NCBI GenBank assembly: GCA_964408285.1
Contig: CAYOYV010000006.1
Coordinates: forward strand, 11,274 to 75,273
Direction of reading: 5' to 3'
DNA: 64,000 nt
Source of the DNA: an uncultured Nitrososphaerota archaeon
GTDB taxonomy: Archaea; Thermoproteota; EX4484-205; JAAOZO01
Shown piece after piece: positions 27,534-58,791 of this stretch. Numbering within the stretch: position 1 is the stretch's first letter; every line of letters starts with the position of its first letter. The translations under genes and the position numbers were made by a program. Under the pieces are notes generated by a model. That model was not told the origin of the DNA. It searched no databases and saw nothing but the letters and a program-made list of their open reading frames with translations.

Positions 27534-28521
27534 GCTGAGAAAACCTAGGAGGCTTGTCATAAGGGAAGAGTCAACGACATCTTGGGATTATGGCTGGAAC
27601 CCGAATCTAAGACGATTGGATCAATTGGTGGACTCTGGCGTAATAGTCCTTGACAAACAGAGCGGCCCCACCAGTCATGATTTTGTGGCAACCCTGAAGA
27701 GACTCCTGAATCTCAAAAAAGCCGGTCACAGCGGGACCCTTGAGTGAATTCGGGGAAATCCTGGCGTGACTGGAGTACTAATCGCGCTTTCCGGAGCAGC
27801 CACAAACCTGGTCCCATACTTGCATAGGCTAGGAAAGGAATATGTCGGAGTTGGGGAGCTGCATTCCGACGTATCAAAATCCAAACTTCAGGAAGCGATG
27901 GGTATATTCATAGGGCAGATATTCCAAAGACCCCCTGTTAGGGCTTCGGTCAGCAGGAAGTTAAGGACAAGATCTGTCTTCTACTTTGACCTTTTGGAAT
28001 ACGAGGATAGACGATTTCTTTTCAGGGTTGGAACGGAAGCAGGTACATACATAAGGAAATTGATACATGACCTTGGGCTGTTGACTGGATCGGGAGCTCA
28101 TATGGTTCAGCTTCGAAGGACTAGGGACGGCCCCTTCGGCGAGTCTCAATCACATGGGATGTGGAGCATCGCCTTGGCCCTTGAGATATATAGATCACGA
28201 AATGATGAGACCGAGCTAAGGAAAGTAATACTACCGATAGAATCGGCAATTGCTCTATATCCATCGATTTATATCAAGGACGGTGCAGTTTCTGCAGTGT
28301 GTCATGGCGCTAATCTCTCGATTGGTGGCGTCTCGTCATTTGAGGAACCTGTGGAAAAGGGAAACGTTGTTTGCGTGAAAACTCTCAAGGGCGAGCTAGT
28401 GGCAATGGCCAGGTCAGAGAAGGATTCTCATGGTCTGCTAAATGACAGAACTGGTCTAGCTGCAATCACCGAGAGGGTTCTAATGGATAGAGGGCTATAT
28501 CCAAAAATGTGGAGACAATAG
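27514..28521 (+). CDS. cbf5: H/ACA pseudouridine synthase Cbf5, interrupted by a 15-nt BHB intron (exons 27514-27742, 27758-28521)
   Basis: LDK.SGPTSH, GHSGTL[D]PGVTG, QRPP, GTYIR and a PUA domain; removing the intron gives a 330-aa ORF. Confidence 0.93.
27743..27757 (+). other. BHB mRNA intron in cbf5 (AGTGAATTCGGGGAA)
   Basis: GGGA-CCCU-[UG|A]...GGGG-[AA|A]-UCCU; excision restores the GAT codon of the catalytic Asp. Confidence 0.9.
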
Positions 28522-54304: not shown

Positions 54305-55672
54305 ATGAGCATACTGATTGTGGATTCGAGGAAGCAGCTCTTCATCGACGATCGCTTTATCCAGTCATCCCAAGGAGTCGTTTTGTCGGTTAACGAAGCA
54401 CGGAAATACCAAGAACCGGTCCTCATCGCGGACCGCCCTTGGGAAAGCATGTGCATAGGCGGCTATAGCACAGTGATGGAGGAGAACGGACTTTACCGCC
54501 TGTGGTATGAGGCCTATGCTTCAGACTATAGGGAGGATTATGATGCGAAGCTATGCTATGCGTTTTCATACGATGGCATTCATTGGGAAAAACCTGCTCT
54601 AGGGCAATCTGAATTTCAAGGCTCAAGGGACAACAACATTGTGTTTGACGACTGCCATAATTTCGGCTATCATGGCGGAACTGTGTTTAAGGATCCAATA
54701 GCCAGCCCTGAGGAAAGATACAAGGTCCTCTACCAAGCCAGGGGAGGAACGCGATCGGATCAATCCAACGCCTGCATGCGAGGAATATACTCGAAAGACG
54801 GAATAAGATGGGTCAAGTACCCAGGCATTCTTGCAGATCACCTAAGCGATACTCAGACTGTTGTTCACTATGACGAGGATTCAGGCAGATACGTTGGTTA
54901 CTTCCGAGTCTGGACAGAGAAGGGATATCGTGCCATAGGTCGCTCTGAGACGCCAGATTTCCTTTGTTGGCCCAGAGACCCAGAATTGATCTTGGCCCCG
55001 GATCAAAATGACCCTACAGACATCCACCTATACACGAACGGTTACAGATCCTATCGCGTGGCCCAAGATGCACATATCTTTGTGATCTCCAGCTTCCATG
55101 CGACAACAGATCTCGTTGATGTTCAGCTTGCCACAAGCCGTGATGGTATTTCGTGGCGTAGACCTGATCGCCGCCCCCTCATACGCCTTGGAGAGGAAGG
55201 GACTTGGGACAGCGGGCAGATCTATGTAGGTGCCGGAACCATAGATAAAGGCAGTGAGCTCTGGGTCTATTACACCGGATTCAGACATGGACACGGGGAG
55301 AACAGGCCGGATGTCATAAGTTACGAGGGAAAAATAGGAATAGCGAAAATTCGAAAGGACGGGTTCATGTCAGCCGAAGCTGGACCTCAGGGTGGCTTTG
55401 TCATGACCCCCCTCCTGAAGTTCTCCGGCAGCCATCTGGAATTGAATTACGATGCCGGAACAGAAGGAGAGGTTTCGGTTGAGCTGCTTGGCGAGGATCT
55501 CATTCCCATCAGGGCTTTCTCAGGGCCCGATTGTGATCCGCTTCACGGTGATTCAACCACCAAGACTGTGACATGGAAAGGTAATGACGACTTGGGCCAT
55601 ATTGCCGGAAGACCCACGCACCTCCGCTTCAATATGAGAGATGCCAAGCTCTTCGCGTTCCACTTCTTCTGA
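54305..55672 (+). CDS. five-bladed beta-propeller glycoside hydrolase-like protein
   Basis: KQLFIDD N-terminus, repeated S.DG..W (Asp-box-like) motifs, R.DGF. Confidence 0.65.
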   Translation: MSILIVDSRKQLFIDDRFIQSSQGVVLSVNEARKYQEPVLIADRPWESMCIGGYSTVMEENGLYRLWYEAYASDYREDYDAKLCYAFSYDGIHWEKPALGQSEFQGSRDNNIVFDDCHNFGYHGGTVFKDPIASPEERYKVLYQARGGTRSDQSNACMRGIYSKDGIRWVKYPGILADHLSDTQTVVHYDEDSGRYVGYFRVWTEKGYRAIGRSETPDFLCWPRDPELILAPDQNDPTDIHLYTNGYRSYRVAQDAHIFVISSFHATTDLVDVQLATSRDGISWRRPDRRPLIRLGEEGTWDSGQIYVGAGTIDKGSELWVYYTGFRHGHGENRPDVISYEGKIGIAKIRKDGFMSAEAGPQGGFVMTPLLKFSGSHLELNYDAGTEGEVSVELLGEDLIPIRAFSGPDCDPLHGDSTTKTVTWKGNDDLGHIAGRPTHLRFNMRDAKLFAFHFF

Positions 55673-55686
55673 TCTTGCGTGCGGAC

Positions 55687-57512
55687 TCACTTCAGGTATC
55701 CCCAATAGGGTTCCTTCTGTCTCTTTATCTTGGTTATTTCCTCGATGGCATCCAACATGTCTTGCGTGGCGAACTGGGACAGGTTCGTCTTTAGGGAAAT
55801 CGCATCTGAAGCCCTGATCTCAACGTACAATGTCTCTCCTTCCTGCACATTTCTTCCCATGACGGCCTCCTTAATGGATATCGACACCTCATCCCCCTTC
55901 TTTGCCTCATTGACCGACTGATCCTGCAGCCTTATGGAGTCAATAGCTCCTATTCTTTCGCCACCTTCACTAATCAAGTTGGAACCTTGTCGCATCAATC
56001 CCTTTTCAACCCTTACCCCGAATATGGCTGGTTTGCTCCTCCTAAAGACAAAGCCTGGCATTATGAACAGCTTGGCGGGCGTGACCAACTTTGAGAAGAG
56101 CTCTTCAGCTGTAGCCTTCTCATAGCTAGTCTTCCAGGAGAAGTATTCATCCATCAGGCCGTATATGACCTTACCCGTCATTATCCTGACTCCCAAGTCT
56201 CTTGCCGCCTCCTCTGCCTCCCCTGTTACGTCTACGTTGAACGCAATTATCACCCTCTGAGTCATGTCTCCGGATGCCGTTGAGGCGCCAATGACATCCT
56301 TCTTGGTTACAGGACCTATATCCGCCATCCTCACCTTGATCGCCTTCGATTGAAGCTCAGGGACAATCGCCTCAAGCGCCCCCAACGTATCGGCCTTCAG
56401 GATTATGCCTTGGATTTCCGTCTTGAACAGGATGGAGGACACCTCTTGCGACAATTCCTCAATTGCTCTTCTCTGTTCCTCCAAAGTATTGCAGACTATT
56501 ACGCTTGAGCCAGCCAGTGCGCCGGCTAGATCTGGGCCACTCAACTTTATTCCGCTGGAGGCCCTCATCTGTGCAACTGAATCAAACCTGTCCCTGGGGT
56601 CGCGTATTTCATCCAATGGCTTAGGAGAAAGAAGGGCCCGAACCTTTGTGACCGTTGGTCCGGTTAACGTTGTGAGTGCGATGGAATCGCCCACCTTGAT
56701 GATGCCGTCATATACGATGACGTTTATCGTTGTGCCCAACCCAACATCCTCCGTTACCTCGAGGACTACGCCCTTGCCCCTGTTCGACTTTGTCTCCAAG
56801 GATTTCGTTTGGAAGGACTGAATCATTCCCGACATGACCGCGATCAGTTCCGCGATTCCCTCTCCCGTCTTAGCGCTGACAGGGACAACTGGATTCTTAT
56901 CCTTGAAATCACTCAGAGAATAGAACAAATCCGTAGTTAGGCCAAGCTTGGATACCTGCCCTACGATATCATACAGCTTCTGCTCGAGCAATTTTCTTGT
57001 ACCTGGTTCCTGCTCCTTGATTGCCTTTAGGAATGAAAGAGAACTGGACGGACGCCAACCTCTCGTGAGATCAATCTTGTTTGCCGCAATGACGAAAGGA
57101 GTCTTTCTTGACCTGAGTATCTCAATAGACTCTATGGTCTGGGGCATGACACCGGCCGTGATGTCTATTACAAGGATCGCAAAGTCTGCTATTGATCCCC
57201 CCCGTTTTCTCAAATTCATGAACGCTTCATGACCAGGTGTGTCAATTACCAATAGCCCCCCGATTTTCAGCCTTGAAGCCACTTCAATTCCCTCTATCTG
57301 GCCCACGACATCAACCAATGTGTCTAGTGGAAGATATGAGGCCCCAACGTGCTGGGTTTGGGACGGTTTCTACCGCTATCCCCCCGGCTTCCCTTTTGGC
57401 CACTAAGGTGCCTCTTATCTTATCCAGAAGGGACGTCTTGCCATGGTCCACATAGTCCCCAGACATGCAAGGTATGACCTAGAACCACGACTATGGGTTC
57501 CCTTAGGCGCAA
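55687..57512 (-). CDS. infB: translation initiation factor aIF5B/IF2 with two BHB introns (exons 57512-57474, 57451-57377, 57357-55687)
   Basis: GGGGTGAT RBS, TTG start; spliced product [44 protein letters not shown]...DTPGHEAF, 594 aa. Confidence 0.92.
57358..57376 (-). other. 19-nt BHB mRNA intron 2 of aIF5B (GCGGTAGAAACCGTCCCAA)
   Basis: GGG-GGGA-[UA|G]-CGGU-agaa-ACCG-UCCC-[AA|A]-CCC. Confidence 0.9.
57452..57473 (-). other. 22-nt BHB mRNA intron 1 of aIF5B (ACCTTGCATGTCTGGGGACTAT)
   Basis: UCUA-GGUC-[AU|A]-CCU...GGG-GACU-[AU|G]-UGGA. Confidence 0.87.
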
Positions 57513-57553
57513 ATTATATCACCCCCCAAAACGGCCGAACTACGTCCGTCCGT

Positions 57554-58009
57554 TTAATAAACGTATTCTGAAATGGGACTCTTCCAGTCCTGTATCTCGT
57601 CCTTCCTGAAAAGTAGGGAGATCTCCTTTGTTGCGATCTCAACCGAATCGGAGCCGTGAATAAGGTTCTTTCCTGTGGATAGGGAATAATCTCCTCTGAC
57701 CGTTCCAGGCTGTGCTTGCAGGAAATCGGTCGCACCGATCATATTCCTGACAACCTTCACACAATCGGGTCCCTCCAGAATAAATGCTACTATCGGACCT
57801 GTCATCATGAATTCTATAAGTTCATTGAAGAATTGCTTTCCCCTATGTACTGAGTAGAATTCCTCAAGCATCTGTTTGGATGGTCTAGTCATCTTCAGCC
57901 CGATCATCCTAAATCCTTTGTCCTCGAATCTGCGTATTACCTCGCCGATGAGCCCCCTGTAAACACAGTTCGGCTTAAGCAGCACCAGTGTCCTTTCCTC
58001 TTGGACCAA
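57554..58009 (-). CDS. ndk: nucleoside diphosphate kinase
   Basis: [16 protein letters not shown] and NLIHGSDS motifs. Confidence 0.96.
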   Translation of the reverse strand: MVQEERTLVLLKPNCVYRGLIGEVIRRFEDKGFRMIGLKMTRPSKQMLEEFYSVHRGKQFFNELIEFMMTGPIVAFILEGPDCVKVVRNMIGATDFLQAQPGTVRGDYSLSTGKNLIHGSDSVEIATKEISLLFRKDEIQDWKSPISEYVY

Positions 58010-58184
58010 CCTTCATCACCCACTTCATTCGCCTAGGATTCCTGCCCAACTCTAAAGCATTTTTCCTGCACTTCTTGCTGCAGAACCACGACATGGTGCC
58101 ATCATTTCTCACGTAAAGGGTACCACTTCCCGGCTCCATCTTCGAACCACAGAATGAGCAATTCCTGAGAACAGGCATGTTCAC
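57975..58184 (-). CDS. rpl24e: 50S ribosomal protein eL24
   Basis: CSFCG...PGSG...FCSKKC...RNPR..KW. Confidence 0.95.
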
Positions 58185-58399
58185 CTGAGCCTCCTTGCTT
58201 CCCTTTCGGCTTCTCTTAGATAGATCAATTCTCCCACTCTGATTGGCCCTCTTACGTTTCTTAGGATGACCCTTCCCTTGTTCCTTCCGGTCTGAATCCT
58301 CACTCTAGCCTGTATTACCTCGCCCGTGGCTCCAGCTCTTCCAAGTACCTCCACGACCTCAGCGATGACGCCCTCCTCAGAGCTCAAGGTAGAAGTCAC
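58181..58399 (-). CDS. rps28e: 30S ribosomal protein eS28
   Basis: LGRAG.TGE...[10 protein letters not shown]...EREAR. Confidence 0.95.
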
Positions 58400-58791
58400 T
58401 CCTTTTGCTCTGTTGCGGTGCCGGACCTTAGCCTATCTACCTTATCGACCAGCTCCATCAGCTGCTTCTGGCTCTGCCCTGGATCCTCAATCGCCACACA
58501 AGAGGCAGGCACCATTAGACCAACGCTATTGCCCAACGTTTTCCTGTCTGGAACAACGATATAGGGGATCTTCCTATCGCGGCACAGCAAAGGCACGTGC
58601 AATACTATCTCGACTGGGTCGACATTCTCTGCAATGTACACCAATTTAGCGACTCCCCTTTCGACCGACTTGGTGGTCTCATTGGTGCCCTTTCTCACCT
58701 TTCCAGTCTGGGCCGCGAGCTTCAGCACATCAAGGGCCTCCGTCTGAAGGGCCTCAGGTACTTCATACTCAGCGGTCGTTATTTTTCCCAT
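58396..58791 (-). CDS. rpl7ae: ribosomal protein eL8 (L7Ae)
   Basis: [14 protein letters not shown] motif. Confidence 0.96.

Follow-up and report, generated by a model that had tools for sequence, protein, structure and literature searches.

Two putative bulge-helix-bulge micro-introns in the aIF5B gene of an uncultured Nitrososphaerota archaeon

The aIF5B gene of an uncultured Nitrososphaerota archaeon raises the question of how the initiation factor could be produced from a gene whose reading frame is interrupted in the codons of the P-loop and again in those of switch I. The gene lies on the minus strand of the stretch analyzed here, 64,000 nucleotides of contig CAYOYV010000006.1 (positions 11,274 to 75,273; assembly GCA_964408285.1), which we call the window and whose own numbering is used below. 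A first-pass annotation, made from the letters alone, had read a 19-nt insert at 57358-57376 of the minus strand, between the GGI and TQH codons, as a functional mRNA intron with a bulge-helix-bulge (BHB) structure. Our analysis supports that reading as a strong inference, and every BHB prediction made at the sequence level holds. The account of the gene was, however, incomplete: the 19-nt insert is real, but a second one, at 57452-57473 in the P-loop codons, had been missed. We consider it very probable that aIF5B is a three-exon gene with two mRNA micro-introns, 22 nt long in the P-loop and 19 nt long in switch I, spliced by EndA and RtcB. Both would be transcribed with the aIF5B mRNA, and each would fold together with its exon flanks into a BHB motif; EndA, represented by two paralogues, would cut between nucleotides 2 and 3 of each 3-nt bulge, and RtcB would ligate the exons, resulting in an uninterrupted frame of 594 codons. 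If splicing failed, functional aIF5B could not be produced. The analysis shows the anatomy of the gene, the colinearity of its spliced product, the conservation and covariation of the motifs across genomes, the enzyme genes and the known cbf5 intron in the same genome, whereas cleavage, ligation and any regulatory role are inferred. The parts of the gene are as follows.

57474 to 57512, minus strand: exon 1, 13 codons beginning at a TTG and ending with those for LGH, taken from the list of open reading frames (ORFs)
57452 to 57473, minus strand: putative intron 1, 22 nt between LGH and VDHGKT (P-loop, G1); motif span 57447-57483
57377 to 57451, minus strand: exon 2, 25 codons from VDHGKT to EAGGI, matching residues 14-38 of 1g7r_A
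57358 to 57376, minus strand: putative intron 2, 19 nt separating GGI from TQH (switch I, G2); motif span 57354-57385
55687 to 57357, minus strand: exon 3, 556 codons plus the stop, identified by Pfam, NCBIfam and the 1g7r_A alignment

By direct reading, which bears out the coordinates of the 19-nt insert, the minus strand runs GCC GGG GGG ATA, the insert from 57376 to 57358, and ACC CAG CAC. The ORF list shows a +1 frame change between ORF 57311..57466 and ORF 55687..57318, and removal of the 19 nt fuses the two. In silico, cuts after the second nucleotide of each bulge excise exactly 57376-57358 and cancel the frame change, as the rule-based cleavage of the first-pass annotation had it. The downstream ORF is indeed in frame, but the length of 543 aa given for it holds for the TTG-limited ORF only, the open frame from the junction onward having the 556 codons of exon 3. 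Intron 1 separates the codons of VVVLGH from those of VDHGKT and accounts for a frame break 76 nt upstream of intron 2. Exon 2 belongs to an ORF that starts inside intron 1 and has no start codon of its own at the 5' end.

The identification of the gene as aIF5B/IF2 was confirmed on each side of the junctions. Exon 3 presents the Pfam domains GTP_EFTU, IF-2, D2 (domain 2) and D4 (domain 4), and taken alone it scores 641 bits against a cut-off of 468 with the NCBIfam IF-2 model PRK04004, with a match only from profile position 70. Exon 2 aligns with residues 14-38 of the aIF5B chain 1g7r_A (E = 1.5e-6) and supplies G1 and G2, and exon 3 continues from residue 39 (E = 7.7e-131), so that with the frame restored the exons abut at 38|39. 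The same abutment is found in 5fg3_A (49|50) and 7yyp_A (59|60). Furthermore, the 13 residues of exon 1 are exactly the number that precede residue 14 of 1g7r_A. The predicted spliced product is colinear with known aIF5B, with no gap and no extra residue.

Each insert and its exon flanks can be written as a BHB. For intron 2, the fold given by the first-pass annotation was re-read base by base and stands: an outer helix h of 3 bp, GGG (57385-57383) with CCC (57356-57354); a central helix H of four Watson-Crick pairs, GGGA (57382-57379) with UCCC (57363-57360); the bulges U57378 A57377|G57376 on the 5' side and A57359 A57358|A57357 on the 3' side, where the bars mark the predicted cuts; and an inner hairpin CGGU (57375-72)-AGAA-ACCG (57367-64), whose helix h' has 4 bp. 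This is the canonical strict hBHBh' arrangement, with two 3-nt bulges on opposite strands and a 4-bp helix between them. In intron 1, H is GGUC/GACU, the outer h is UCUA/UGGA (4 bp), the inner helix pairs CCU with GGG (3 bp, one of them G-U), and the bulges AU|A and AU|G, again of 3 nt each, flank the 4-bp H. Archaeal EndA is described as cutting between residues 2 and 3 of each bulge (PMC2738675).

The 5' region of aIF5B was read in 29 loci, 24 from genomes of the order, mostly metagenome-assembled genomes (MAGs) that are 57-94% complete, and five from outgroups. Intron 2 is present in eight of the 24 genomes of the order (G000, which is the host genome of the window, G001, G003, G005, G006, G007, G009 and G010) and in none of the five outgroups. 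Besides G000, its carriers are G001, G003 and G005, of genus g2 in the same family f1, G006 in family f2, G007 and G009 in family f3 and, in family f4, only G010 among the 15 loci read; G002 and G004 (family f1, genus g3), the other 14 f4 loci and the outgroups lack it. Intron 1, with 17-22 nt, occurs in all six f1 genomes (G000 to G005) and in no other of the 29 loci; in the orthologues that lack it, the residues at the end of exon 1 run straight into VD[HS]GKT. The insert sites are identical codon boundaries in the eight and the six genomes, from up to four families, and their flanking residues are conserved. A degenerate DNA pattern, EAGGI followed by 11 to 45 nt and TQH[VI]GA, matched eight of 401 genomes sampled from the phylum, the same eight, and none of the 375 genomes outside the order, a negative that holds for these exact residues; the reversed pattern gave 0 matches. 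Among 12 related public loci, the sole member of the intron group was L038, from a Candidatus Brockarchaeota archaeon of the same order, which contains intron 2, while five other named archaeal loci (L039 to L043) do not.

Pairing within the motifs was counted on MAFFT alignments into which the BHB, derived from the same sequences, had been written by hand, as was the helix assignment in the relatives outside the strict form. For intron 2 (eight sequences) 98.6% of 71 cells were paired, compared with 20-68% when the partners were slid; for intron 1 (six sequences) the figures were 95.5% of 66 cells and 24-64%. In intron 2, five cells have changed on both sides, none of 500 shuffles reached the observed score, and pairs of the inner helix vary in a compensatory manner (CG/GC in one, CG/UA/AU/GC in the other). 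In the H helix of intron 1, a synonymous exon change in G000 (GGC to GGU, C to U) is matched by a G-to-A change on the intron strand. H is 100% paired in all eight copies of intron 2 and all six of intron 1, and the bulge-4 bp-bulge geometry, the one recognized by EndA, is the only feature conserved across all copies.

This geometry bears on the question of whether the inserts could be removed by a route other than EndA and RtcB, such as a different endonuclease, self-splicing or excision from the DNA itself. We give such a route a slight chance; in its favor, intron 1 can also pair its outer helix in a 10-bp register that would not yield 3-nt bulges. Lengths of 17-22 nt are far below those of group I and group II introns, the interval 56900-57800 gave 0 Rfam matches at E <= 1, and what all copies keep is the EndA type of geometry and nothing else. 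The inserts are not flanked by consistent direct repeats either, and on this ground a mobile DNA element with target-site duplication was rejected. Excision from the DNA also finds no counterpart in the contigs of four sequencing runs, where no joint skipping either insert was found over 57000-57700.

The enzymes that the preferred reading calls for, splicing by EndA and RtcB, are encoded in the host genome. Two EndA-type proteins of 194 and 217 aa, both with PF01974 and PF02778, are 28% identical to each other; their genes lie at G000 C4:48440-49024 and C8:13425-14075. The first is closest to the tRNA-splicing endonuclease chains 2cv8_A, 3p1z_B, 3ajv_B and 2zyz_B, which we take to be crenarchaeal catalytic subunits; the second lacks a His at the position aligned with the His of the DHAP motif of the first, presumably a part of the EndA catalytic triad. 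The enzyme is presumably an (alpha-beta)2 heterotetramer, a form that has been linked to relaxed substrates and mRNA splicing (PMC10485636, PMC5829648). RtcB was found as well, at C15:34836-36143 (PF01139, E = 1.1e-168). Moreover, the tRNA complement points to a lineage rich in tRNA introns: despite 94% completeness, G000 gave only 17 Rfam tRNA matches above the cut-off, many of them 88-125 nt long, and 21 genes with ARAGORN, a shortfall that fits such a lineage, with most tRNA genes probably hidden by several or non-canonical introns.

The variation among orthologues allowed us to weigh translational recoding, that is, a frameshift, hopping of the T4 gene 60 type or stop read-through with the hairpins as stimulators, which we regard as somewhat less probable than an alternative route of excision. 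Each insert contains a stable small hairpin and causes a +1 change of frame in G000, and some archaeal split genes were once taken for frameshifts (PMC2738675). Yet the copies of intron 2 measure 17, 18, 19, 20 or 22 nt, which no single frameshift rule could accommodate, and where the length is 18 nt, in G001 and G003, the insert keeps the frame but has two stop codons in it. The codons that bypassing would have to match do not, with AUA before one insert and CAA or UAG at its end, and CAU compared with UAU or UAA at the other, in G000 and its relatives. Read-through, in turn, would place six to seven foreign residues in the P-loop and in switch I.

A decaying pseudogene, or an artifact of assembly or binning, is a still more improbable explanation. 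It would suit a frame that is broken twice within 120 nt, in a genome that is a 46-contig MAG of 1.82 Mb (1,821,214 positions; 93.7% complete, 2.6% contamination). The DNA, though, is found independently. Thirteen public runs contain part of this stretch, none of them on record as RNA, and the contigs of four were compared over 57000-57700. Three are identical to the window, with 0 differences and 0 gaps each (X4 over 57201-57700, X6 over 57236-57522 and X8 over 57000-57481), so that the insert of the first-pass annotation recurs in three further runs and is missing from none; the fourth run, X2, also covers the region but could itself be where the window comes from. Study codes differ among the runs, which may nevertheless stem from one campaign. 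As for decay, aIF5B is a single-copy gene in the assembly and was found in all 31 related genomes, exon 3 is full length, free of internal stops and 46-62% identical to its orthologues, and the insert sites are shared across families. The least credible possibility is that the gene yields three polypeptides (13, 25 and about 543-556 residues) that assemble. All the pieces are open frames, and a TTG could serve as the start of the third, but such an arrangement would split both the P-loop and switch I in two, exon 2 lacks its own start and the copies of the relatives differ in frames and stops.

Several observations weigh against splicing by EndA and RtcB, or at least do not favor it. No run on record as RNA is listed for 57000-57700. 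The eight intron 2 genomes are related and so are not independent samples, and the samples behind the compensatory changes, of eight and six sequences, are likewise few and related. The h pairs and three of the four H pairs of intron 2 are invariant because the Gly-Gly-Ile and Thr codons fix the exon side, and its covariation amounts to two inner-helix pairs plus one G-C/G-U switch. The inner helix is weak in G007, G009, G010 and G001, where only one or two pairs remain beside the bulge (relaxed forms). Folding by minimum free energy (MFE) gave z = +0.58 for the region of intron 2, where 142 of 200 shuffles did equally well, and z = -0.65 for that of intron 1, where 49 of 200 did, and for intron 1 it favors the 10-bp register of the outer helix; free-energy folding does not discriminate a motif this small, and we did not use it as support. 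Finally, a strict hBHBh' scan of both strands of the whole genome, for lengths 11-70 (60 lengths), returned 13,207 motifs, or about 6e-5 per position and length (13,207 over 2 x 1,821,214 x 60), compared with 16,265 under a decoy pairing rule, with no enrichment. After ORF and coding filters the numbers were 611 real and 702 decoy motifs, and 1,951 and 2,140 in a relaxed scan.

A BHB motif by itself is thus weak evidence, being common genome-wide; the argument of the first-pass annotation concerned an exact BHB whose cut sites match the required boundaries. That the cuts of a given insert should land on one of its two or three equivalent frame-restoring boundaries is expected at about 1-2e-4. 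Such frame-exact cuts occur at both aIF5B inserts and recur in the eight and six orthologues, whose inner sequences differ.

Among the candidates that passed the frame and coding filters, inspection of the spliced peptides found four convincing, the two in aIF5B and one each in the genes of DnaG and CTP synthase; the remaining candidates, judged by eye, resembled gene starts or neighboring genes. An initial scan that called for 40 open codons on both sides was discarded, as it missed exons of 13 and 25 codons and returned mainly junctions of neighboring genes. Both the strict and the relaxed scans needed at least two inner-helix pairs and so missed a further, relaxed insert in cbf5, which makes the count a lower bound. 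The three inserts outside aIF5B are as follows.

27743 to 27757, plus strand, in the window: cbf5 insert, 15 nt, splitting the catalytic Asp codon (G|AT) after its first letter; cbf5 spans about 27547-28515
G000 C15:5526-5546 (L050:1527-1547), minus strand: DnaG insert, 21 nt, strict BHB with an in-frame TAA, between the GVV[DE] and KHD codons
G000 C1:204628-204650 (L051:1929-1951), minus strand: CTP synthase insert, 23 nt, strict BHB, in the codons of the GGV.SS|.GKG motif

The cbf5 insert contains an in-frame TGA inside the GTL-D-P motif and has a relaxed BHB, in which H pairs CCCU with GGGG, h pairs GGA with UCC, the bulges are UG|A and AA|A, and there is almost no inner helix. When 30 cbf5 loci were compared across 29 related genomes, the Asp codon was found to carry 11-36 extra nt in 29 of them, and only G026 has a plain GAT. 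The position of the insert matches the one reported for the intron of crenarchaeal cbf5 (PMC2738675), and on that published precedent the organism must already splice at least one mRNA by the EndA/RtcB route. In G011, a second cbf5-like locus (L142 = C32:1-2591) has a longer insert at the same site, with 36 nt past the Asp codon. This locus may be a paralogue, or it may come from a different organism that contaminates the bin.

The DnaG insert (18-41 nt) is found at the same site in all 23 loci of the order and in none of four outgroup loci, and 18 of the 23 combine a strict BHB with frame-exact cuts. Its inner helices are highly variable, being GGGCC/GGCCC in G000 and, for example, GAAUCUUC/GAAGAUUC or GAACC/GGUUC in others. 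The ORF downstream of it matches the NCBIfam DnaG model from profile position 16, and the one downstream of the CTP synthase insert matches its family profile from position 15. The latter insert occurs in three of 25 loci (G000, G002 and G004); in the g2 genomes of that family, pyrG is more distantly related (about 50% identity) and has no such insert. The five inserts all fall within the first fifth of the respective gene, in codons of highly conserved loops, whether P-loop, switch, nucleotide-binding or catalytic. Such a bias toward the 5' end, together with the abundance of G in the exon strands of the helices, may bear on gain and loss, five cases being too few for a test. Two other strong GTP_EFTU matches in the genome are uninterrupted, each in one frame from profile position 3. 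Loci L036 and L037 are other GTPases, and the aEF-2 gene (L143 = C29:5860-8782) is cut off at profile position 246, where contig C29 ends, which leaves its G domain outside the assembly.

The history of the aIF5B inserts was approached with a maximum-likelihood gene tree of the exon-3 proteins (29 rows), which is midpoint rooted, and for this reason the order of gains and losses below can be put forward only conditionally. The order forms a clade (98/95), as does f1 (100/100), all members of f2 and f3 carry intron 2, and the three unresolved branches at the base of f4 include G010. On the simplest account, intron 2 would have been gained once, at the base of the order, and then lost precisely in g3 and within f4, and intron 1 would have been gained once, at the base of f1.

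It is possible to hypothesize, although we think it rather unlikely, that the order harbors a small evolving population of BHB micro-introns in protein genes, at least five of them in G000, which were gained by an active process. An example of such a process would be the reverse action of EndA and RtcB on mRNAs with G-rich half-BHB codons, followed by reverse transcription. In that case the DnaG insert and aIF5B intron 2 would have been gained at the depth of the whole order, aIF5B intron 1 at that of the family and the CTP synthase insert at that of two genera. If this were true, translation initiation, priming or exosome function and the supply of CTP would depend on EndA/RtcB activity, and the order would offer an archaeal, spliceosome-free model for the colonization of mRNAs by introns and for their loss.

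The closest known system is the cbf5 pre-mRNA intron of Crenarchaeota, reportedly the subject of work by Watanabe in 2002, Yoshinari in 2006 and Yokobori in 2009. The aIF5B inserts resemble it in being short, within a gene that is in frame without them, in codons of the most conserved catalytic motif and in a BHB-type structure with cuts at bulge residues 2|3; their host likewise has an EndA, presumably hetero-oligomeric, along with a cbf5 intron in the same genome and patchy gain and loss among relatives. They differ in the host gene, in numbering two per gene, in the strict canonical hBHBh' motif of G000 as opposed to the relaxed one of cbf5, in being confined to one order among the genomes searched, and in that their splicing is deduced here from sequence. 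Archaeal BHB introns in tRNA and rRNA, which Marck and Grosjean reportedly treated in 2003, share with them the motif, the size class and the enzymes; unlike these, the aIF5B substrate is an mRNA, where each helix is constrained by codons in its exon half and an error in splicing destroys the frame. The tRNA and rRNA introns range from 11 to 175 nt (PMC2738675). In Haloferax volcanii, the HVO_1309 mRNA contains a BHB that is cleaved by EndA and appears to be spliced (PMC10485636, PMC7714728). It shares with aIF5B an archaeal mRNA BHB as EndA substrate, predicted in the case of aIF5B, but is a single gene in a euryarchaeal host with an alpha2 EndA.

Outside the archaea, HAC1/XBP1 splicing removes a very short mRNA intron independently of the spliceosome, with a change of frame and, in metazoa, ligation by RtcB; its endonuclease IRE1 recognizes twin stem-loops and acts as a regulated stress switch. 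The aIF5B introns have a BHB rather than twin stem-loops, with no regulation shown here. The unconventional cytoplasmic splicing of HAC1/XBP1 by IRE1 and RtcB is named in PMC13149111.

The list of archaeal protein-gene introns has since 2002 held essentially two entries, cbf5 and HVO_1309, the two that a 2023 review names while noting that others are still to be found (PMC10485636). The available parts of PMC13149111, PMC12397907, PMC11291895 and bioRxiv 10.64898/2026.10.13.758758 mention no other protein-gene introns. We found no literature report of introns in aIF5B, DnaG or pyrG, or in Brockarchaeota, in a search that left subscription journals and supplements largely outside, so that a prior mention is possible. 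What is new is the occurrence of canonical BHB introns in a new host gene, two per gene, in a new lineage and with siblings in other essential genes, the kind itself being known. If confirmed in RNA, these introns would more than double the known archaeal protein-gene repertoire and make EndA/RtcB mRNA splicing a recurring trait of a whole lineage rather than a cbf5 oddity. They would also offer a comparative system for the entry and exit of introns in coding sequence, with dated gains and precise losses. Gene callers will mark such essential genes as truncated or frameshifted, and completeness estimates and "pseudogene" calls in such MAGs will be wrong.

In the surroundings of the gene, a 455-aa ORF on the plus strand (54305-55672), convergent with aIF5B, matched no Pfam family at E <= 0.001. 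Directly upstream of aIF5B and on the same strand (57554-58791, minus) lie the genes L7Ae, S28e, L24e and NDK, with overlapping or abutting ends, and aIF5B is the last gene of this conserved translation-related cluster.

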